From Candidatus Moraniibacteriota bacterium (GTDB lineage Bacteria > Patescibacteriota > Minisyncoccia > Moranbacterales > UBA9337), in assembly GCA_026985555.1 (NCBI GenBank), contig JALSQF010000010.1, positions 26,112 through 90,111 of the forward strand: 64,000 nucleotides of DNA, in the 5' to 3' direction. Both the position numbers and the translations under genes were made by a program. Shown piece by piece: positions 9,182 to 57,598 of this stretch. Numbering within the stretch: the stretch's first letter is position 1; every line of letters starts with the position of its first letter. The notes under the pieces were generated by a model. That model had not been told where the DNA came from. It saw only the letters and a program-made list of their open reading frames with translations, and did not search any database.

Positions 9182-10357
9182 ATGTTGAAAAAAATTTTAA
9201 AAAAATTATTTAATCTTTTTTTGATCATAGCTTTAATAATAGTAGTAAATATTATATTAGAAAATTATATATTGTCTAGGTTAGCACAAAATCATTATTG
9301 GTCTCAATTCAGTTTTGTTCAAAAAGTAAATAAACCAGTAAAGATTATCAATAAAATAGAAAAAGTAACTCTTCCTCAAGATAAATCCATTAAAGAAATT
9401 GTTTCTCAAACCAATACTGCTATGGTAAATATTCTTTCTTTAAAAACAACTACTAACAGTATTAAAACAAAAACAAAAGAAACAAAATTTAAATTATTGC
9501 AAAATGGAACTGGTGTTATATTAACTAGCGATGGATTAATAATAGCAAATAAAAATTCTTTAGTTTTGGGAGAAGATGTTAATTATAAGGTTTTAGTTTT
9601 CAATGGAAAAAGTTATACTGCTAAAATTACTTGGTTAGATAATTTTTCCAATTTAGTTTTTTTAAAACTTGATAATGTTAACAATTTACCTGTTATAGCT
9701 TTAGCCAATTCTGATGATTTTATGTCTGGTCAAAAAATAATTGCTATTAGCAACAAAGGAAAAGAATATAATAATTTTTTAGCGGAGGGAAATCTTGAAA
9801 CTAAAGATAGAACATTTAATTTATCTACAAGTGTTGTTAATTCATCAGAAAAATTAGAGGGTGTTTTTCGTTTAAATTTAGCTAATACTGATGATTTTGA
9901 TGGAGGAATAGTAACTAATTATAAAGGGGAAGTAGCGGGATTAATTAGCTCTCTTAAAAAAAATAATCAAACAGAGTATTTAGTTATACCAAGTAATAAA
10001 TTAAAAAATATATTTGAATTTTATCTTAATTATCAGGAAGACAAAAAGGAAAGAGCGCGTTTAGGTGTGTCTTATTTATCAATTAATCCTTCATTAGTAT
10101 TAAGCAAACAACTTCCTGTTAACGAAGGGGCTTTAATTTATTCTCCTTCAGGTAGACAAGGGCTGGCTATATTAAAAAGTTCTTCTGCGGATAAAGCAGG
10201 CATTGAAGTAGGGGATATAATTATATCTGTTGATAATCATTTAGTAAATCTAGATAATCCTCTTTCTAATATAATTGCTCAATATCATCAAGGAGAAAGA
10301 GCGAAAATAATTATTCTAAGAAAAAAAGAAAAAAAAGAACTGATAGTAAATTTTTAA
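9182..10357 (+). CDS. HtrA/DegP-like trypsin-fold protein with a C-terminal PDZ domain; catalytic motifs look degenerate
   Basis: N-terminal TM anchor, a trypsin-like core (GTGVILTSDGLIIAN...) and a C-terminal PDZ (GDIIISVDNHLV). The canonical TNNHV and GNSGGPL motifs are replaced (ANKNS and DDFDGG). Confidence 0.6.
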   Translation: MLKKILKKLFNLFLIIALIIVVNIILENYILSRLAQNHYWSQFSFVQKVNKPVKIINKIEKVTLPQDKSIKEIVSQTNTAMVNILSLKTTTNSIKTKTKETKFKLLQNGTGVILTSDGLIIANKNSLVLGEDVNYKVLVFNGKSYTAKITWLDNFSNLVFLKLDNVNNLPVIALANSDDFMSGQKIIAISNKGKEYNNFLAEGNLETKDRTFNLSTSVVNSSEKLEGVFRLNLANTDDFDGGIVTNYKGEVAGLISSLKKNNQTEYLVIPSNKLKNIFEFYLNYQEDKKERARLGVSYLSINPSLVLSKQLPVNEGALIYSPSGRQGLAILKSSSADKAGIEVGDIIISVDNHLVNLDNPLSNIIAQYHQGERAKIIILRKKEKKELIVNF

Positions 10358-10453: not shown

Positions 10454-10463
10454 ATATATTTTC

Positions 10464-10499
10464 GGGGTCATTAAAGGGGTCATTAAAGGGGTCATTAAA
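10464..10499 (+). repeat. Tandem 12-bp direct repeat GGGGTCATTAAA x3
   Basis: Three exact head-to-tail units abutting the stop codon of rpmE. The same unit recurs at 57571-57598. Confidence 0.9.
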
Positions 10500-34289: not shown

Positions 34290-34604
34290 ATGTTTGATCC
34301 AGGTCCCAGTGATTTTAATGTGCTCATCTTTTTTTTAATTATTTCCTTTATTATTTCTATTTTGATTTATTCTTTTTTTAAAAAAATGGATTGGGCTTTT
34401 TTTTCTTTTTCTGTTTTGAGTAATGTTAGTTTTTATATTTTATCAAACTCTCTAATGTTTGTTGAAAATGATGCAATTTGGATTATGAAATTTACTTTTA
34501 ATTATTGGCCATGGTTAAATGGTTTTCTTTTAATCTTTTTAATTATTAAGTGGTTTAGAAAAAGGAGGCTGAACAGTAAAGAAAATGGGAAAAAATTTTT
34601 TTAG
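34290..34604 (+). CDS. Small membrane protein, hypothetical
   Basis: 104 aa with 3 hydrophobic segments. Confidence 0.35.
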   Translation: MFDPGPSDFNVLIFFLIISFIISILIYSFFKKMDWAFFSFSVLSNVSFYILSNSLMFVENDAIWIMKFTFNYWPWLNGFLLIFLIIKWFRKRRLNSKENGKKFF

Positions 34605-37206
34605 AATTTTATTTATCTTTCTTTTTTTATTAGCTCCTGAAGTTTCTTGGTTAGAATCTTTCGCTCAACCATATTCTCAATATTCTCAACCAATTATAAT
34701 TTCTTTAAATACGGTTTGGCATAAAGAAGATAAATTGATTTTTCAAAGACCGATAGTTATAGTTAATGGCGCCACTTTAACTATTGAAAAAGGAACTCAA
34801 ATTATTTTTAAAAATAAAAAAGACTTTAGAGTCCCTCTTGGCATTAAGGTTCTGAAAGGGAAAATAATTGCTCAAGGAGAAACTCAGTCCAAAATTATTT
34901 TTCTTTCTCAAGATAAAACTCCTTTTAGCCTTTCCATAGAAAGCAAAGAACAACAATCTTTTTTTCGCTATGTAAAAATTATTGGCGGAGGATATCAATT
35001 AGCTTTTCATAGCCATAATTCTAATTTTAATTTTTTTTCTAAAGCTTACGCTTTTAGGGGTATCCTAGGGCAAGCAGCTTTGGAAGTTAGGGGTGGAAAA
35101 ATTAAAGTAGAAAATACAGAGTTTTTAAATAGCCATTATGCAGATGTAGAAACAGGAATAGGAACAGAATATGATAAGGAAAATCAAGAATTGAAAAATG
35201 TTTATTTACCTCAAGTAACCATTGTGAATAGTAATTTTTCTTTTACACCTGCTCTTGTAGGTAATCAATGTAGAGAGTATAAGGAGATGTTAGGAAAGAA
35301 TAATCCTCAAGAATGTTCTCAAAGTGTTTTTTTAAAAGATAATTGGTATGGTTTTTCTCAAGAGGAAAAAAAGGAAAAGTTTAAATTGCAAGGAGACTAT
35401 TTAAAAAAGGGTTCTAGAAAAAGTAGTTTGATTTTAGATCCAGTGGTTTTTATTCCAGGAATTTTAGGATCAGATTTTAATAGAGAAGGAGAATTAAAAA
35501 TAGATCCCATCTGGCATCAATACGATGATCTACTTCAATCATTGCAAAAAAATGGTTTTCCAGAAAACAAAAAATTATTTCTTTTTCCTTATAACTGGCG
35601 TTTTAAGAATGAAGTTAGCGCTGCGCTTTTAAGAGAAAAGATTAAACAAATTCAAAAAGAAACACAAATTTCTAAAGTAGACATAGTGGCTCATTCTATG
35701 GGCGGATTAGTAGCGCGAGCCTATGCGGAAAAAAAAGACTATGCTAATAATATTGATCAAATGATTTTTTTAGGAACGCCTCATCAGGGAGCGCCAAAAG
35801 CTTTTTTAATGTGGGAAGGAGGAGAGGGCTATCAATTTTTATTGGCTAGGCATTTGCGTCATGAAGCAGAAGAAAATAATTATGATGAATTGTATCAATA
35901 TGTTCAAGAAAAAACTCCTTCTGTTAAAGAACTACTGCCAGTTTATAGTTATTTGTTTGATCTGGAGAAAAATAATCTTGAAAAATATCCTCAAGGTTAT
36001 CCGGTTAATTCTTTTTTAGAAAAATTAAACGCAACGGATAATTTATATAAATTAGAAAAAATAAATATAATTAATATTATAGGAAAAACTAGGAAAAATA
36101 ATACCATTGGTAAAATTAGAGTAAATAAAAGTATTTCTTTTGCTGAAAAAAAATGGGTAGATGGTTATCCAGAAAAATTTGATGATAAAAAAACAGATAG
36201 AGGTTTAGAACTTGTTTCTGGTGATGGGACTGTGCCCTTTCAAAGCGCTGAAAAAATTCCATTTAATAAAGAAATAATTTTGGAAACTACACACACTAAT
36301 CTACCTACTGAAGCTCAGTGTGAAATTTTTTCAGAACTAACTTTATTAGAAAAAAATAAGTGTCAATTTATTGATAATTGGCATAGTCCTAACTGGTTAT
36401 TATTTCATATTTTTTCTCCCGTAGATGTCCAAGTAATAGATCCTTTAAAAAGGAAAATTGGAAAGGATTTTTCTACAGGGAAAATTTTTAATGAAATTTA
36501 TGGAGCTTATTATAGTGGATATAAAACAAAGAAAGAATTCTTAGCTATTCCTTTTCCTCAAGAAGGGAAGTATAGAATTTTAACTCAAGGAGTAGGTCAA
36601 GGAAAATATAGAATTGAAGTAGCTTATCTTTCTCAAAATAAAAACGGAGAAATAATTGATAGCCAAATTATTTATCAAGGAAAAACTTCTCTTCAAGAAG
36701 AAAATCAACAGGTTTTTTTCTTGAAAGATAATTTGTTATCAAAAGAAGAAACCAATCAAAAAGATTATCAAGAAGAGAACAAAGATAATATCAATCATAA
36801 TGTGGACAATAATGTTATTTTAGAAAGTTTAAATAATTCTTCGGTGTCTCAAAACAAGCACCAAAAGAAAGATTCTTCTGATTCTCAAAAACAAAAAAAG
36901 AAAAACCCAAAAAAAAATTTAAAATCAAAGAAAATAATTCAATCAAAAAAGAAGCTATCTTTCTCTAAAAATAAAACTAATTATTCGGAAAAAATAAAGG
37001 AAGAGAATTATCAGAGTAAAGAAAATCTAGTTACAGAAAAGAAAGTGAAAGGAGAGGAAAATAATATTTATAAAATCAAAAAAAATAATTCGCAGAAAAC
37101 AAAAAAGAATTTTTTAAAAAGATTATTACTAATTATAGGTATAGTAGTTTTAACTCTTATAATTTTTGGATGGAAAAAAATATTTGGAAAAAAAACCAAA
37201 GAATAA
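34585..37206 (+). CDS. Large secreted/surface-anchored alpha/beta-hydrolase (lipase/esterase) with a lysine-rich spacer and a C-terminal TM anchor
   Basis: Signal peptide, a beta-rich N-terminal region, an oxyanion-hole-like PVVFIPGILGS, the nucleophile elbow AHSMGG (GxSxG), a K-rich low-complexity tail and a terminal hydrophobic helix (LLLIIGIVVLTLIIFGW). Confidence 0.65.
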   Translation: MGKNFFRILFIFLFLLAPEVSWLESFAQPYSQYSQPIIISLNTVWHKEDKLIFQRPIVIVNGATLTIEKGTQIIFKNKKDFRVPLGIKVLKGKIIAQGETQSKIIFLSQDKTPFSLSIESKEQQSFFRYVKIIGGGYQLAFHSHNSNFNFFSKAYAFRGILGQAALEVRGGKIKVENTEFLNSHYADVETGIGTEYDKENQELKNVYLPQVTIVNSNFSFTPALVGNQCREYKEMLGKNNPQECSQSVFLKDNWYGFSQEEKKEKFKLQGDYLKKGSRKSSLILDPVVFIPGILGSDFNREGELKIDPIWHQYDDLLQSLQKNGFPENKKLFLFPYNWRFKNEVSAALLREKIKQIQKETQISKVDIVAHSMGGLVARAYAEKKDYANNIDQMIFLGTPHQGAPKAFLMWEGGEGYQFLLARHLRHEAEENNYDELYQYVQEKTPSVKELLPVYSYLFDLEKNNLEKYPQGYPVNSFLEKLNATDNLYKLEKINIINIIGKTRKNNTIGKIRVNKSISFAEKKWVDGYPEKFDDKKTDRGLELVSGDGTVPFQSAEKIPFNKEIILETTHTNLPTEAQCEIFSELTLLEKNKCQFIDNWHSPNWLLFHIFSPVDVQVIDPLKRKIGKDFSTGKIFNEIYGAYYSGYKTKKEFLAIPFPQEGKYRILTQGVGQGKYRIEVAYLSQNKNGEIIDSQIIYQGKTSLQEENQQVFFLKDNLLSKEETNQKDYQEENKDNINHNVDNNVILESLNNSSVSQNKHQKKDSSDSQKQKKKNPKKNLKSKKIIQSKKKLSFSKNKTNYSEKIKEENYQSKENLVTEKKVKGEENNIYKIKKNNSQKTKKNFLKRLLLIIGIVVLTLIIFGWKKIFGKKTKE

Positions 37207-51765: not shown

Positions 51766-53835
51766 ATGCAATTAATAAAAAAACTTATAAAAACCAATGA
51801 CAAATATGATTTATCAGTTTTTAGTAAGGAAAGTGTAGATGAACTAGAAAAAAGAATTTATGAAAAAAATAATAAACTTTATTTTGATTGTTTAGTCAGA
51901 GAAAAATCAATCCAAGTAAAACCAGAAGAAATTGTAAGACAACTAATGATTGATAAACTTTTGAAAGAATATAATTATCCCAAAGAACTTTTACAAGTAG
52001 AGTATACAGTTACTTTTGGAAGAGAGAAAAAATCAGCTGATATTGTTATTTTGAATAAAAAAGATAAAACAAGTCCTTATATAATTGTTGAAGTTAAAAA
52101 AGCAAGTGCCAAAGATGGCAAAGAGCAATTAAAATCATATACAAATGCAACAGGCGCACCTCTTGCTGTATGGACTAATGGTCAAGAAATAAATATATAT
52201 GAAAGGCTTGACCCAAACTATTTTGAGCCACTTTCAGATTTACCAAAATATGAAGAAACTATTGAAGATGTAAAACAAGAAATTTTCACTTATCTTGATT
52301 TGATGGTGAAAGACAAGCTTGCAAATGAAAGAAAATCTTTAAAAGATTTGATTTTAGAGCTTGAAGATGAAGTTTTGGCAAATGCAGGTGTAGATATTTT
52401 TGAAGAAGTTTTTAAACTGATTTTCACAAAACTTTATGATGAAATGCAAAGTGCAGATGATAGAATTCAGATAGAAAGAGATTTTGTTAGACTAAAAAGA
52501 CAAAAGCCAGAGCTTACAGATAAAGAAATTTTGCAAGGATTATTAAAAGAAAACAAAAATAATGTAGAAGGATACAGAAAACTTGAATTTAGAAGTAGGG
52601 GAGATGCTCATCATACAAAAGAAGTGATAAATAAGCTTTTTGAAAAGGCAAAAAGAAAATGGCCGGGTATTTTTGATGATGGAGAACCTCTTAGAATTAC
52701 CGATGAAAATCACTTACAAATTTGTGTTGGTTATTTACAAAATGTAAAACTTTTTAACTCAAATTTGCAAGTAATTGATGAAGCATTTGAATATCTTGTA
52801 AATAAATCAGCAAAAGGTGATAAAGGTCAATATTTCACACCAAGAAATGTTATAGATATGGCTGTTTATATGATAAACCCGAAGCCAAATGAATATGTAA
52901 TAGATACAGCAGCCGGCAGTTGCGGTTTTACAGTGCATACACTATTTAATGTTTGGAATAAACTTAAAAATCAAGGAAAAGCAAATTTTCATAATTTTTC
53001 AAATCAGAGGTTAACTCCTGAACAAATAGAATATACAAGTAAAGTTTTTGGTATTGATTTTGATGAAAAAGCAGTAAGAGTAGCAAAAACTCTAAATATG
53101 ATTGCAGGAGACGGAAAAACAAATGTAATTCATCTAAACTCACTTGATTTCACAAGATGGAATGAAAAGATAAAAGATAGAGAGTGGATGAGAAAATATG
53201 GCGAGGGGTATTATAGGCTGCTTGATTTAGCAGTAAATAGAGATGAACCAAAAGAATTCAATTTTGATATAGTTTTGACTAATCCTCCTTTTGCGGGAGA
53301 TATAAAAGATAATAGACTTTTAGCTCAATATGAAATAGCATATAAAGAAAATGGAAAAAGAGTATCAAAACTTAGTAGAGATATTTTATTTATAGAAAGA
53401 AATCTAAATATGCTAAAACCTGGTGGTAGAATGGCAATAATTTTACCACAAGGTAGATTTAACAATACTTCAGATGAAAGAGTCAGAGAATATATAATGA
53501 GTAAAGCAAGACTTATTGCTGTAATAGGACTTCATGTTAATACTTTCAAACCACATACAGGAACAAAAACTTCTGTTTTGTTTGTGCAAAAATGGAATGA
53601 TGACCCAAACAAAGGTCCATTAAATCCTTATAAAGAAGATTATGAAGTTTTTATGGCAGTAAGCGAAAAACCAGGAAAAGATAATTCAGGGCAAGAAGTT
53701 TACAAAACAGATCCTGAAACGGGAGAAAGGTTGCTTGACGAGCATGGGCATTTAATACAAGATCATGATTTGGAAGAAATAGCAAAAGAGTTTGAGAAGT
53801 GGGCTAAGAAGGAAGGGTTGAGTTTTTGGAAATAA
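51766..53835 (+). CDS. Restriction-modification subunit: N-terminal PD-(D/E)xK nuclease-like domain fused to a gamma-class N6-adenine DNA methyltransferase (HsdM-like; Type IIB/BcgI-A-like architecture)
   Basis: N-terminal D92...E109-V-K111 (SADIVILNKKDKTSPYIIVEVKK), resembling the HsdR_N endonuclease fold. MTase motif I VIDTAAGSCGF and motif IV TNPPFAG. No hsdR in the window. Confidence 0.7.
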   Translation: MQLIKKLIKTNDKYDLSVFSKESVDELEKRIYEKNNKLYFDCLVREKSIQVKPEEIVRQLMIDKLLKEYNYPKELLQVEYTVTFGREKKSADIVILNKKDKTSPYIIVEVKKASAKDGKEQLKSYTNATGAPLAVWTNGQEINIYERLDPNYFEPLSDLPKYEETIEDVKQEIFTYLDLMVKDKLANERKSLKDLILELEDEVLANAGVDIFEEVFKLIFTKLYDEMQSADDRIQIERDFVRLKRQKPELTDKEILQGLLKENKNNVEGYRKLEFRSRGDAHHTKEVINKLFEKAKRKWPGIFDDGEPLRITDENHLQICVGYLQNVKLFNSNLQVIDEAFEYLVNKSAKGDKGQYFTPRNVIDMAVYMINPKPNEYVIDTAAGSCGFTVHTLFNVWNKLKNQGKANFHNFSNQRLTPEQIEYTSKVFGIDFDEKAVRVAKTLNMIAGDGKTNVIHLNSLDFTRWNEKIKDREWMRKYGEGYYRLLDLAVNRDEPKEFNFDIVLTNPPFAGDIKDNRLLAQYEIAYKENGKRVSKLSRDILFIERNLNMLKPGGRMAIILPQGRFNNTSDERVREYIMSKARLIAVIGLHVNTFKPHTGTKTSVLFVQKWNDDPNKGPLNPYKEDYEVFMAVSEKPGKDNSGQEVYKTDPETGERLLDEHGHLIQDHDLEEIAKEFEKWAKKEGLSFWK

Positions 53836-53856
53836 TTTATTTTTAATGGAGGAGAT

Positions 53857-56115
53857 ATGATTAAAAAAATTAAAAAAATAAAAAACCTTGGAATATTTAA
53901 TGAATTTAGATGGAATTCATCTATTTTAGAATTTAAAAGATATAATTTATTTTATGGATGGAATGCATCAGGAAAAACTACTTTGACTACTATTTTTGAG
54001 TCATTGAATTTAAATATTACGAAATATTTTAAAGATGCGGGATATGAGATAGAAACTAATAATGGTGATATTTATAAACAAAATGATATTTTTCCAACAA
54101 AAGTTAGAGTTTTTAATCAGCATTACATAGATGAAAATATACATATTTCTAATGGAAAAACAAAACCTATTTTTTTATTGGGTGAAGAAAGTAAAGAATT
54201 AAAAGAAAAAATAGATAATTGGGAAGATGAAAAAATCAAATTAAAAAATATAAAAATAGAATTAGAAAGAGTGAAAGAGCAAAAGGAAAAAGATATTAAT
54301 AATATTTTTACAAATACTGCTAGAATTATAGGTGAAAATTTATCTGGTTCATCAGTCAGAAATTATAGAAGAAATGATGCAAAAGATGATTTTGAAAAAT
54401 TAGCTCAGAAAGAACTATTGTCACAAGAAGATTTAGAAAAATATAAAAAGATAAAAGAACAAAAGAAAAAAGAAAAGATTGATGAAATAGTATTTACTTT
54501 AAGGCAAGACAAAATTTTAGAAGAAATAAAAAACATTTTAAAAAAATCTGTTAATTCTATTATAATAGCAAGACTAAAAAATAATCCAGATATTTCTGCT
54601 TGGGTTGAGAAAGGTATTGAAATTCATAAAAAACACAATTCTAAAACTTGTGAATTTTGTGGTCAAAGTTTACCAAATGGTTTAATAGAAAAACTTTTGC
54701 TTTATTTTAATGAAGAAGATAAAAAATTAAAGCAAATTATTGATGAAAAAATAAATTTTTTAAATAATAAATTTAATGAATTAAATAATTTAAACATACC
54801 TAAGAAAGTTGAATTATATGATGACTTGTATAATGATTTTGAAAGCAGATTAAGTTCCTTTAATAAAGAAAGGATAAATTTATCAAATGAGATTTCAGAA
54901 TTAATCAAACATTTACAAAACAAAAAATTTAAGACTAGTGAACCTATGAAAATTACATTTTATTTTAACAATTCATTTGAAGAAGCATTAAAAAATTTAA
55001 ATGAAATAATAAAAAAGCATAATAATAAAACAGAAAATTTACAAGAGCAAAAAGATGAGGCATTTAAAAAAATAAAAAACCATTATCTAAGTGAGATATG
55101 GGATAAGGTGAAAGAAAATGAAAGTAAAATTAGTGAAATAAACAATAATATAACTATCATTAATAATGGTGGTAGTTTTACTTATAAAGGTAAAAACATT
55201 GAAACAATTGAAACAATAGGGCTTTCAAAATTAAATAATGAAATTTTAGAGGCAAAGGCTAAAATATCTGATTTACATAAATCAGTTGATAAATTGAATA
55301 AGTATTTAGAAACATTTTTAGGTAGAAATGAAATAAAATTTAAGGTATCTGATGAGCAAGATGGATTTATAATATTAAGAAATAATGAGATTGTAAGCAA
55401 TTTGAGTGAAGGTGAAAAAACAGCAATTGCTTTTGTTTATTTTATAATTCATTTGCAAGATAAAGATTTTAATATAAACAATGGAATTGTAGTTGTAGAT
55501 GATCCTGTATCTAGTTTTGATTCAAGTTCTGTTTTTCAAGCCTTTGCATTTATGAGAGAAGCTGTTAAAGATGCAAAGCAAATCTTTATTTTTACTCATA
55601 ATTTTGATTTTTTTAAATTAACTTTAAATTGGTTTAAGAATTCAAGAAGAAATTGGAGTTGTTATCAAATTAAAAATAAAATGATTAAAGAAAAAGAGAA
55701 TACAAAAAGAATAGCTTATATAGATAAAATCGATCATTTTATTGAAAAATATACTACAGAATATGAATATTTGTTTAAGGTATTGTATGAATTTAATAAT
55801 TCAGACCCAAGTAATATAGAAGATGTTTATAATATACCAAACATTGGTAGAAAAGTTTTGGAAACATTTTTAACATTTAGAATTCCTACTTCAGAAAGTT
55901 TGTATCAAAAATTACAGAAAATAAATTTTGATGAAAATAAAAAGACCTCAATATACAAGTTTTTTAATGATTTATCACATTTGACAGGTAGTGGTTTTCA
56001 CCCATCATTGATACAAGAATCTAAGAAAAATGTAAAATATTTGTTAGAAATGATAAAAAGTTCTTTTAAGGAACATTATGATATTTTAGAAAATACTTTA
56101 TCTAACCAAAACTAA
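53857..56115 (+). CDS. RloC/PrrC-like ABC-type ATPase with a coiled-coil CxxC zinc-hook insert and a C-terminal R-x3-E...H module (putative anticodon nuclease)
   Basis: Walker A GWNASGKTT (residues 34-42), a long coiled-coil insert containing CEFC (residues 265-268), Walker B IVVVDDPVSSFD, and a C-terminal GRKVLETF...LSH. It sits between the MTase and S genes, and its stop is 2 nt before the hsdS start. Confidence 0.55.
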   Translation: MIKKIKKIKNLGIFNEFRWNSSILEFKRYNLFYGWNASGKTTLTTIFESLNLNITKYFKDAGYEIETNNGDIYKQNDIFPTKVRVFNQHYIDENIHISNGKTKPIFLLGEESKELKEKIDNWEDEKIKLKNIKIELERVKEQKEKDINNIFTNTARIIGENLSGSSVRNYRRNDAKDDFEKLAQKELLSQEDLEKYKKIKEQKKKEKIDEIVFTLRQDKILEEIKNILKKSVNSIIIARLKNNPDISAWVEKGIEIHKKHNSKTCEFCGQSLPNGLIEKLLLYFNEEDKKLKQIIDEKINFLNNKFNELNNLNIPKKVELYDDLYNDFESRLSSFNKERINLSNEISELIKHLQNKKFKTSEPMKITFYFNNSFEEALKNLNEIIKKHNNKTENLQEQKDEAFKKIKNHYLSEIWDKVKENESKISEINNNITIINNGGSFTYKGKNIETIETIGLSKLNNEILEAKAKISDLHKSVDKLNKYLETFLGRNEIKFKVSDEQDGFIILRNNEIVSNLSEGEKTAIAFVYFIIHLQDKDFNINNGIVVVDDPVSSFDSSSVFQAFAFMREAVKDAKQIFIFTHNFDFFKLTLNWFKNSRRNWSCYQIKNKMIKEKENTKRIAYIDKIDHFIEKYTTEYEYLFKVLYEFNNSDPSNIEDVYNIPNIGRKVLETFLTFRIPTSESLYQKLQKINFDENKKTSIYKFFNDLSHLTGSGFHPSLIQESKKNVKYLLEMIKSSFKEHYDILENTLSNQN

Positions 56116-56117
56116 CT

Positions 56118-57467
56118 ATGGCACAAATAAGCATAATAAACATAAAAAATATAATCCAAGCAAAAAGGTTTGATGCTGAGTATTTTAAACCGGAGTATTT
56201 GAAGGATGATTTTTATTTAGAAAATAAAGGCTTTTTCTTATTGTATGAAATTTCAAATGTTAAAGGGGGGAAAAGATTACCATTAGGAGAAAAGTTTTCA
56301 GAAAAAGGAGTTCCTTATATTAGGGCAGAAGATATAAAAAATGATTTTGTTGAATATGAAAATGTACCAAGAATTTCTTTACAATTACATGAAAAATTAA
56401 AAAAATATCAAACTAAAAAAGATGATATATTGTTAACTATTGTAGGTTCTGTTGGAGCTATTGGTATTGTAAATTTTAATTTAGAAAGATGCAATTTAAC
56501 AGAAAATGCAGCTAAAATAACTAATTTAGATTTTAATAAATATAAATCAGAAGTGATATTTTCTTTTTTGTTATCTAAATATGGTCAAAATCAAATAAAA
56601 AGAGAAAAAGTAGGAACAGTTCAAGAAAAATTATCATTAGATAGACTAAGAAAATTTAAAATTCCTCTTCTCCCTCAATCCTTCCAACTCCAAATAGAAA
56701 AAATAGTAAAAGAAGCTTATGAAAAACAATCTCTTTCAAAAGAACTTTACAAAGAGGCAGAACAGATTTTGCTTAAAGAATTGGATTTGAAAGATTTCAA
56801 ACCAAAACATAAATTGACTTTCACCACAACAAAAAAAGAAATAGAACAGGATAAAAGATTTGATGCAGAATATTTTCAGCCAAAATATGAAGAAATTATT
56901 GAGAAAATAAAAAGTTATAAGGGGGGATTTGATAAAGTTGGGGAAGTAGTAAATATAAAAGATAAAAATTTTACATCAAAAGATTATGTAAAATATAAAT
57001 ATGTTGCATTAGCTGATATTTCAAATGATGGATATATTCAAAGTTTTGAAGAAGATTTCGGTAAAAATTTACCTACAAGAGCAAGAAGACTTATAAATAA
57101 AGGAGATGTAATTATTTCTTCTATTGAAGGTTCTTTAAATTCTTGTGCTTTAATTGAAGAAGAATTTGATAATTCAATTTGTTCTACAGGTTTTTATGTT
57201 GTAAATTCTGAAAGAATAAATCCTGAGACATTATTAGTTTTAATGAAATTATATCCAATACAAAAACTGTTGAAAAAAGGGTGTAAAGGAACAATACTTA
57301 CTGCAATACCAAAAGATGAATTAGAAAAAATTGTTTTACCAATTATTGACAATCAAACCCAACAAAAAATTTCTCAAAAAATACAAGAGAGCTTTAAACT
57401 TAAAAAAGAGTTAAAAGAGCTTTTGGAAAAAGCCAAAAAAATGGTAGAAGAGGAAATAGAAAAATGA
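56118..57467 (+). CDS. hsdS: Restriction-modification specificity subunit (HsdS-like, two target-recognition domains)
   Basis: Duplicated conserved segments RFDAEYFKPEYL and RFDAEYFQPKYEEI separating two variable TRDs. Central and C-terminal conserved helices (LQIEKIVKEAYEKQ, ELKELLEKAKK). Confidence 0.8.
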   Translation: MAQISIINIKNIIQAKRFDAEYFKPEYLKDDFYLENKGFFLLYEISNVKGGKRLPLGEKFSEKGVPYIRAEDIKNDFVEYENVPRISLQLHEKLKKYQTKKDDILLTIVGSVGAIGIVNFNLERCNLTENAAKITNLDFNKYKSEVIFSFLLSKYGQNQIKREKVGTVQEKLSLDRLRKFKIPLLPQSFQLQIEKIVKEAYEKQSLSKELYKEAEQILLKELDLKDFKPKHKLTFTTTKKEIEQDKRFDAEYFQPKYEEIIEKIKSYKGGFDKVGEVVNIKDKNFTSKDYVKYKYVALADISNDGYIQSFEEDFGKNLPTRARRLINKGDVIISSIEGSLNSCALIEEEFDNSICSTGFYVVNSERINPETLLVLMKLYPIQKLLKKGCKGTILTAIPKDELEKIVLPIIDNQTQQKISQKIQESFKLKKELKELLEKAKKMVEEEIEK

Positions 57468-57570: not shown

Positions 57571-57598
57571 CATTAAAGGGGTCATTAAAGGGGTCATT
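57571..57598 (+). repeat. Tandem 12-bp repeat GGGGTCATTAAA (about 2.7 units), second locus
   Basis: ccacattaaaggggtcattaaaggggtcatt. Same unit and orientation as 10464-10499; 34 bp upstream of the AbrB-like ORF. Confidence 0.9.

Follow-up and report, generated by a model that had tools for sequence, protein, structure and literature searches.

We examined a three-gene restriction-modification (RM) locus in a 64-kb stretch of contig JALSQF010000010.1 from a Candidatus Moraniibacteriota bacterium, referred to here as the window. When the window was read for open reading frames (ORFs), three genes on the plus strand, encoding proteins of 689, 752, and 449 amino acids (aa), were found where an earlier note on this DNA had placed them (Table 1). 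Gene 1 fuses a nuclease domain to an N6-adenine methyltransferase (M), gene 2 encodes an RloC-family protein, and gene 3 encodes an HsdS-like specificity (S) subunit. A GGAGGAG motif sits 5 nucleotides (nt) ahead of the gene 2 ATG, while gene 3 starts 2 nt past the gene 2 stop codon and lacks a Shine-Dalgarno sequence of its own. Together with the 21-nt spacer, this arrangement suggests that the genes form a single operon in which translation of the S subunit is coupled to that of gene 2. The genes, the 2-nt spacing, and the motifs quoted in the earlier note are borne out by the ORF coordinates, the sequence, and patterns of conservation. Its overall reading, a Type IIB-like RM system harboring an RloC-like gene, is supported: of the refuting conditions that the note lists, none that could be checked holds, the check for an hsdR gene outside the window covering about 2 kb past its downstream end. 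The GC content is 27.8% for the window, 29.8% for gene 1, 21.9% for gene 2, and 25.3% for gene 3. In sequence of 28% GC, a scan for promoters and terminators was uninformative: it returned 64 promoter-like sites where 48 were expected, and its single terminator-like site lay on the wrong strand.

Table 1. Features of the locus (positions in the window)
Feature	Position	Strand	Description	Evidence
Gene 1, RM fusion	51766..53835	+	689 aa; N-terminal PD-(D/E)xK nuclease, helical connector, gamma-class N6-adenine methyltransferase	Pfam HSDR_N_2, N6_Mtase, Eco57I
Gene 1 nuclease domain	51922..52245	+	aa 53-160; E79, D92, E109-x-K111	Pfam HSDR_N_2
Gene 1 N6-adenine methyltransferase domain	52771..53634	+	aa 336-623; motif I VIDTAAGSCGF, motif IV NPPF	Pfam N6_Mtase
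Gene 1-gene 2 spacer	53836..53856	+	21 nt; GGAGGAG ribosome-binding site; upstream cargo cassette junction	Sequence
Gene 2, RloC-family	53857..56115	+	752 aa; Rad50-like ATP-binding cassette (ABC) ATPase, coiled-coil/zinc-hook insert, C-terminal helical (HEPN-type) anticodon-nuclease-like domain	Pfam AAA_13
CxxC zinc-hook motif, C265-E-F-C268	54649..54660	+	Both Cys invariant in 50 homologues	
Gene 2 C-terminal all-helical domain	55735..56115	+	aa 627-752; R665-x3-E669-x38-S707-H708	Conservation in 50 sequences
Gene 3, HsdS-like specificity subunit	56118..57467	+	449 aa; two target-recognition domains, duplicated RFDAEYF repeats	Pfam Methylase_S

Domains and conserved residues of the three proteins

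Gene 1 combines nuclease and methylase domains in one chain. In Pfam, its nuclease region matches HSDR_N_2 over the full profile (positions 1 to 110 of 110, E 3.7e-29) and its methylase region matches N6_Mtase (E 2.7e-31), whereas HsdM_N has no match at E values up to 0.1. The same Pfam check, proposed in the earlier note, found AAA_13 in gene 2 and Methylase_S in gene 3. Gene 1 also matches the PADLOC model MTase_I (PDLC03034) with 877 bits. The best relative in the PDB is RM.BsaXI (8w0p), to which both the nuclease and the methylase regions align in a single-sequence search (E 1e-24). When the gene 1 family profile was compared with the PDB, BsaXI scored 109 bits (E 1.6e-30) and the runner-up, the methyltransferase chain of 7vru, scored 62 bits.

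The predicted catalytic residues are highly conserved. We aligned 78 homologues out of 80 genomes, which come from many phyla and are 48 to 73% identical to gene 1. Residues E79, D92, E109, and K111 are 99 to 100% conserved, as are D380, A382, G384, S385, G387, and F388 of methylase motif I and N506-P507-P508-F509 of motif IV. In BsaXI, alanine mutagenesis has shown that E73, D90, E105, and K107 are essential for cleavage, and these residues are conserved across Type IIB enzymes (PMC11997821). Our HMMER alignment places E109 and K111 directly on BsaXI E105 and K107. In the same ungapped stretch, D92 lies two columns off D90 and E79 is aligned with E75 and not with E73; we infer that D92 is the equivalent of D90 and E79 that of E73. 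An AlphaFold2 (AF2) model built from a shallow alignment (72 to 91% identical) has an overall predicted local distance difference test (pLDDT) of 63 and was used only for the order of secondary structure. With moderate confidence, it gives the N-terminal domain as helix-strand-strand-strand-helix-strand; the second strand carries D92, and E109 falls where the third one ends. These results uphold two identifications of the earlier note: the PD-(D/E)xK-like domain, which aligns with a nuclease domain proven by mutagenesis, and the N6-adenine methyltransferase with its VIDTAAGSCGF and NPPF motifs.

Conservation across the gene 1 family is higher than is usual for a restriction enzyme. A search with gene 1 matched more than 8000 clusters at 90% identity, and 215 of the 689 positions are at least 97% conserved in the 78 genomes. 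Relatives labelled Falkowbacteria, Alphaproteobacteria, Endomicrobiaceae, and Thioglobus are about 72 to 74% identical to gene 1, and one from a Micrarchaeota archaeon locus is 65% identical. Such similarity across phyla suggests rapid horizontal spread under strong constraint.

Gene 3 is HsdS-like, as first noted from its duplicated RFDAEYF. Methylase_S matches it in two stretches, RFDAEYF occurs twice in the protein, and its best PDB matches are Type I S subunits. Among relatives, the recognition domains vary while the central and N-terminal regions stay conserved.

Gene 2 is probably an RloC-family predicted tRNase with a putative zinc hook. AAA_13, the Pfam family that includes PrrC, spans the protein (profile positions 2 to 712 of 713, 426 bits). 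The PADLOC model PDC-S06 (PDLC04894) matches it end to end with 767 bits; that label denotes an undescribed defence candidate and implies neither a mechanism nor embedding in an RM locus. Many homologues carry the Joint Genome Institute (JGI) name "wobble nucleotide-excising tRNase." Davidov and Kaufmann defined RloC as proteins of 658 to 897 aa with ABC ATPase motifs like those of PrrC, an insert with a coiled coil and a CxxC zinc hook that interrupts the ATPase head, and a C-proximal R-x3-E-x36-52-H triad, often with Ser before the His (PMC2610378). Gene 2 falls within this size range and carries every sequence feature of the published definition. In 50 homologues that are 23 to 96% identical to it, the ABC motifs (G34-x4-G39-K40-T41-T42, L516-S-E-G-E520, D548-D-P550, S553/D555, and H581) are retained in at least 48, except at position 41, which is T in 43 and S in 7. 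Both C265 and C268 of the putative hook are invariant, as are R665 and H708 of the triad; all 50 sequences have E or D at position 669, 49 have the Ser at position 707, and E669 and H708 are spaced by 38 residues.

Structure prediction is consistent with this assignment. The AF2 model of gene 2 (pLDDT 87) has an all-helical C-terminal domain and long helices flanking the CxxC motif (H110-162, H286-310, H322-358, and H373-437). Foldseek ranked Rad50, a Lamassu (LmuACB) chain, and SMC heads as its top PDB fold matches. A sequence search of the PDB gave no match, and PrrC and RloC entries were likewise absent from the results of the fold search. The full-length AAA_13 match and the complete set of RloC sequence features agree with the original identification of the middle gene as an RloC-like P-loop ATPase. 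Judged by the published motif criteria, gene 2 resembles the RloC proteins of Geobacillus kaustophilus and Acinetobacter baylyi in size, in its ABC motifs, in the CxxC hook within a helical insert, and in R-x3-E-x38-S-H (PMC2610378).

The nuclease-methylase family and HsdR

No HsdR was found in the 64-kb window, in agreement with the earlier note; in a library scan of the window ORFs, the sole ResIII/DEAD protein was PriA. Genes 1 and 2 aside, the ORFs that reach 590 aa encode T2SSE, IF-2, DnaG, PriA, a lipase-like protein, and PolA. A further 2 kb or so downstream of the window, read from the matching NCBI contig, also contained no HsdR.

The relatives of gene 1 allowed us to look beyond this genome. 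Using gene 1, we scanned a genome collection and recovered 80 loci with flanks of up to 10 kb; ORF maps of 78 of them were tallied by layout. The M and S genes are adjacent in 25 loci, separated by one to three ORFs in 23, and fused into a single chain in 19; the other 11, mostly at contig ends, could not be assigned. No ResIII, HSDR_N, or T1RH family reached two members among the 42 of 48 neighbor ORFs of at least 700 aa, within 10 kb of about 78 family members, that were scanned by Pfam. The 19 single-chain restriction-methylation-specificity (RMS) fusions are about 1080 to 1215 aa long (most 1160 to 1200) and mostly cyanobacterial. One example is a 1179-aa single-chain fusion on plasmid pAQ6 of Picosynechococcus PCC 7002 (L091 7001-10540), and a conjugative Klebsiella IncF plasmid, NZ_LR890357.1, bears a bare M(674)-S(463) pair. 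Type IIB enzymes have been described as RM+S pairs along with single-chain RMS forms (PMC11997821), which is exactly the pattern found in the gene 1 family. The single-chain loci (L049, L051, L054, L059, L061, L063, L064, L067-L069, L072, L073, L075-L077, L080, L081, L083, and L086) have members annotated merely as "N-6 DNA methylase."

Several features of the locus are those of Type IIB enzymes. Like BsaXI and BcgI, it has an N-terminal PD-(D/E)xK domain fused to a gamma-class N6-adenine methylase, a separate HsdS-like S subunit with two recognition domains, and no helicase. The matches to the catalytic E/D/ExK residues are conserved, and single-chain RMS versions occur within the same family (PMC11997821). 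With BsaXI as the best solved relative and the tetrad conserved, the proposed Type IIB-like layout of a nuclease-methylase fusion, a separate S gene, and no HsdR is supported. There are also differences. The similarity to BsaXI is distant (109 bits, with the family profile), and gene 1, at 689 aa, has no paddle, while BsaXI has 916 aa. Furthermore, the family is labelled Type I M or "N-6 DNA methylase," and many of its members carry an extra gene between RM and S.

A different reading is that the locus is an ordinary Type I system whose hsdR gene lies elsewhere in the genome, which would make gene 1 just an M subunit with an N-terminal domain other than the restriction nuclease. We consider this very unlikely. 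Public annotations do use "type I restriction enzyme M protein" or "N-6 DNA methylase," PADLOC places gene 1 in class MTase_I, gene 3 is closest to Type I S subunits, and the part of the genome that was read amounts to the window and about 2 kb past its downstream end. Yet gene 1 lacks the helical HsdM_N domain, its nuclease catalytic residues do not vary, its closest solved relative is BsaXI, and HsdR is not a recurrent neighbor within 10 kb of the roughly 78 family members. In addition, the single-chain fusions and the plasmid-borne M-S pair indicate that the module travels without an R gene. Unlike a Type I locus, the window contains no HsdR with its superfamily 2 (SF2) motor.

As the survey shows, a very large and poorly annotated family of proteins known as "N-6 DNA methylase" carries a conserved nuclease, and therefore its members are probably complete restriction enzymes.

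The slot between M and S and the relatives of gene 2

The position of gene 2 between M and S is occupied by other genes in close relatives. Where gene 1 is 84 to 91% identical, the slot holds a 605-aa AAA_15/AAA_21 ATPase, a 444-aa protein without known identity together with a Dam methylase, or a 658-aa GHKL ATPase. In more remote family members, the cargo includes AAA_15/21, Schlafen AlbA_2 with HATPase_c_4, HEPN_AbiU2, DUF6119, DpnII-MboI, SDH protease, DUF4145, Mrr_cat, RhuM, and proteins without a Pfam match. Along with the 25 of 78 relatives in which M and S are adjacent, this variability confirms that the RloC-like gene is, as the earlier note put it, inserted between the RM genes. Several of these families, RhuM among them, as well as the AbiD/F and paraMORC/GHKL groups, have been reported inside R-M operons (PMC3710099). 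Slot genes without a Pfam match (L089 10095-11429, L011 12084-13343, L013 12012-12572, L016 2222-3007, L028 12078-12701, and L070 12063-12902) may be undescribed defence genes.

The edges of the cargo can be located by comparison with a relative, L088. In blastn, the window is 90% identical to L088 over 51782-53883, a match that stops 27 nt inside the cargo gene. A second block of similarity, 56079-56204 (91%), takes in the final 37 nt of the cargo gene together with the start of S, and a third lies in the central conserved region of S (56651-56954, 93%); the bodies of the two cargo genes are unrelated. Because homology breaks inside the ends of the cargo, we infer cassette exchange by recombination in conserved flanks. 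Variation of the first S recognition domain is superimposed on this exchange. The low GC content of gene 2, 21.9% against 29.8% for gene 1, also fits its status as cargo. The junctions common to both loci, which include the ribosome-binding site with the first 27 and the last 37 nt of the cargo gene, are at 53836-53883 and 56079-56204 in the window and at 10089-10140 and 11892-12017 in L088, and both cargo proteins end in ...NQN.

The variable slot also bears on whether gene 2 is part of the restriction enzyme itself. Under this explanation, the AAA_13 protein would be an integral ATPase subunit of a three-part enzyme, like MAD3 between MAD2 and MAD5 in the MADS system, and there would be no tRNase. 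In NCBIfam, gene 1 comes closest to MAD2 and gene 3 to MAD5, an AAA ATPase family (MAD3) is defined for MADS, and Rad50/SMC-like heads bind DNA. However, gene 2 has no match to MAD3, and the operon lacks MAD6-8, without which the published detection model does not call MADS (10.1101/2023.03.30.534895). M and S are adjacent with nothing between them in 25 relatives, and the conserved R-x3-E/D-x38-S-H triad of gene 2 points to RNase chemistry. We give the idea of an integral subunit very little credence. MADS (mad1-8) is the nearest named multi-gene system, and assignment of the locus to it was rejected: gene 1 scores 320 bits against MAD2 (cut-off 720), gene 3 scores 146 against MAD5 (cut-off 400), gene 2 has no MAD3 match, and MAD6-8 are absent from the three-gene operon, the flanking ORFs not having been scanned with the MAD6-8 models. 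All three of MAD6, MAD7, and MAD8 are mandatory in the published detection model (10.1101/2023.03.30.534895). The methylation-based MANTIS/Gao_RL was also rejected as an unrelated four-protein system with a helicase-nuclease.

The pairing of gene 1 with gene 2 is a rare new combination of known modules. We surveyed relatives of gene 2 at 80 metagenome loci and scanned 80 operonic neighbor proteins; such neighbors were present at 46 of 79 loci. Among them, 12 matched Methylase_S and 11 matched ResIII; with HSDR_N in 8 of these 11 and T1RH-like_C in 7, they are classical HsdR. Seven matched N6_Mtase (4 with HsdM_N) and five matched N6_N4_Mtase. No gene 1-type neighbor was found in this survey, with phmmer scores to gene 1 of at most 79 bits as opposed to more than 300 bits for family members. 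Conversely, at the 80 genome loci that carry a relative of gene 1, the AAA_13 clade of gene 2 was absent from the slot in every case. We found the exact pairing in just one other place, an ENA contig from another sample (L173), which keeps the 21-nt spacer and is 93% identical to the window at the nucleotide level over 51850-56116. Between the two contigs, the cargo protein (gene 2, L173 2135-4390) is more alike than the host RM protein, at 96% versus 91% identity. This difference fits a recent acquisition or transfer of the cargo.

Relatives of gene 2 usually occur in classical Type I or Type II loci, or alone. One homologue is overlap-coupled to a DpnII-type Type II operon, another lies near a HinfI-type system, a third is beside N6_N4 methylases, and two stand alone amid housekeeping genes. 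In the DpnII-type case (L002 7222-12220; L003 127-5125), an RloC-like gene 46 to 47% identical to gene 2 overlaps by 4 nt the last gene of an operon that consists of a helix-turn-helix regulator, a Dam-like methylase, DpnII, and a second methylase. The RloC literature that we examined makes no mention of an RloC-like guest of a Type II system.

Anticodon nucleases inside restriction loci are a textbook case of layered immunity, with helicase-containing Type I or III systems as the hosts described so far. The earlier note had presented PrrC/RloC-type genes as guests of Type I (Ic) loci. Published surveys do not bear this out for RloC, which is rarely linked to RM and then to Type I or III loci or Pgl (PMC2610378, PMC3710099). 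Eight of 72 RloCs were in Type I or III loci, and the Campylobacter jejuni rlo genes are among the known RloC-type genes embedded in R-M loci (PMC2610378, PMC3710099). Our finding of relatives beside Type II systems or alone likewise argues that RloC is not specifically a Type Ic guest. Gene 2 is similar to the C. jejuni rloC/E/G inserts in Type I loci in that it is also embedded in an RM locus (PMC2610378). It departs from described RloC genes in its host, an HsdR-less nuclease-methylase fusion in place of a Type I or III system. What the earlier note called an unusual coupling is therefore new in the type of partner, but not in principle, given that RloC-type genes in R-M loci were already known. 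A full-text search for "Type IIB" and "RloC" within the searchable literature library returned nothing relevant, which is weak evidence of novelty.

Possible functions of the operon and its surroundings

We somewhat favor the view that the locus is a two-layer defence operon, in which a self-contained, helicase-less RM enzyme is accompanied by a most likely autonomous RloC-family tRNase that was acquired as cargo by cassette exchange. In the first layer, gene 1 would supply nuclease and N6-adenine methylase activity while gene 3, a Type I-style S subunit, would recognize a bipartite site. Judging from BcgI and BsaXI, the complex probably has the composition (RM)2S. Host sites would be methylated by this complex, and DNA lacking the modification would be cut close to its recognition sites, with no translocation along the DNA. 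In the second layer, the RloC-family protein would combine a Rad50-like ABC ATPase and zinc hook with a HEPN-type anticodon nuclease, most likely acting autonomously. Its ATPase/zinc-hook switch may sense DNA ends or breaks and release the tRNase, shutting down translation where restriction has failed or DNA is breaking. The RM operon would contribute co-transcription and translational coupling, and possibly DNA ends produced by restriction. The cargo itself would have arrived by cassette exchange in a slot that is filled by other abortive infection-type genes in relatives.

What is known of RloC is consistent with the second layer. RloC is a tRNase that excises the wobble nucleotide, and it has an internal switch that is turned on by DNA-dependent ATPase activity or DNA breaks (PMC3458546, PMC3874168). 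Moreover, its activation has been reported even in an R-M-deficient host (PMC3874168). We favor autonomous regulation of gene 2 because its homologues also occur alone.

The main rival is a guard of the PrrC type, in which the RM-S complex binds and silences the RloC-like protein until a phage anti-restriction factor disables the complex and fires it. PrrC works in this way with EcoprrI (PMC2610378). The gene order fits such dependence, with the cargo gene lying within the operon, separated from M by 21 nt and from S by 2 nt, and the same gene 1-gene 2 pair has been kept in an independent sample. RloC relatives are also often operonic with RM genes (12 Methylase_S, 11 ResIII, and 12 methylases in the 80 neighbors). 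Like PrrC-EcoprrI, the locus has an ABC-HEPN tRNase-type gene between RM genes as a potential second line of defence. Unlike gene 2, with its 752 aa and CxxC motif, PrrC has 341 to 416 aa and no coiled-coil/zinc-hook insert, and it is always found in a Type Ic locus with HsdR (PMC2610378). Against a guard, homologues 45 to 47% identical to gene 2 occur alone or with unrelated Type II systems, with no one RM partner conserved, and unrelated cargo fills the slot in close relatives. The internal switch of RloC and its activation in an R-M-deficient host also argue against dependence on a partner (PMC3874168). On balance, we regard a guard as possible, if unlikely.

Four considerations nevertheless weigh against the two-layer view. 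First, the tight coupling of S to the cargo gene and the presence of the same pair in a second sample could reflect PrrC-like functional dependence instead of autonomy. Second, the scope of the search for HsdR in this genome was the 64-kb window and about 2 kb downstream, which leaves formal room for an hsdR acting in trans from elsewhere in the genome. Third, the predicted nuclease fold of gene 1 rests on Pfam, on sequence matches to BsaXI, and on the predicted order of secondary structure, the AF2 model being poor. Fourth, residues D816 and E823 of the C-terminal paddle are needed for cleavage by BsaXI (PMC11997821). Gene 1 ends at residue 689 without this paddle, and its cutting mechanism may differ from that of BsaXI. 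The alignment to BsaXI stops near residue 610 of 689, and the AF2 model, with its pLDDT of 63, is too weak to judge the knob.

A bolder idea concerns the gene 1 family as a whole. Its M-S junction may be a dedicated cassette slot for swapping abortive infection effectors, in which synthesis of S stays coupled to translation of whatever cargo is present. The conserved junctions would consist of the ribosome-binding site and start region upstream and of the last 37 nt or so of the cargo gene plus the S start downstream. In the present locus, double-strand cuts made by the enzyme in phage DNA would generate the ends that turn on the RloC-like tRNase, such that restriction directly arms the suicide layer. 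We find this idea doubtful as a whole and offer it tentatively.

If the two-layer operon works as proposed, it would represent a coupling of RM to a tRNase that is independent of a translocating R subunit. With three genes, the locus could serve as a tractable model for asking whether DNA ends made by restriction trigger RloC. Several cargo genes have no Pfam match, which makes the M-S slot a possible source of new defence genes. Looking beyond this locus, the view of the "N-6 DNA methylase" family as complete restriction enzymes with a cargo slot may be a more useful lead than the pairing itself.

The surroundings of the operon are those of a housekeeping region. Upstream are ribosomal proteins and PolA. 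Downstream, the next plus-strand ORFs are a 58-aa ORF with weak MazE/AbrB-like similarity, 164 nt past S, and a 302-aa ORF without a Pfam match and with weak, unrelated NCBIfam matches only; also downstream are a XerC/XerD-type recombinase (262 bits against the XerD model), and GltX. A search for flanking repeats or att sites around the locus gave only low-complexity, AT-rich chance matches, and no tRNA gene was found at its borders. We rejected the tyrosine recombinase as a sign of mobility, as it is of the housekeeping XerC/XerD type and not a phage integrase. The defence-island context claimed in the earlier note from repeats, an AbrB-like gene, and a recombinase thus fails to extend beyond the operon itself.

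Two other features of the window were recorded in passing. An 873-aa ORF at 34585-37206 has only a central lipase/alpha-beta-hydrolase match (LCAT, PGAP1; residues ~285-418), with about 700 residues that match nothing. A 12-nt unit (GGGGTCATTAAA) is repeated in tandem, two to three times over, at exactly two intergenic sites, one at 10461-10496 between convergent genes next to rpmE and the other at 57572-57598, 34 nt upstream of the 58-aa AbrB/MazE-like ORF; the tandem unit has 4 matches in the window against 0.41 expected by chance.

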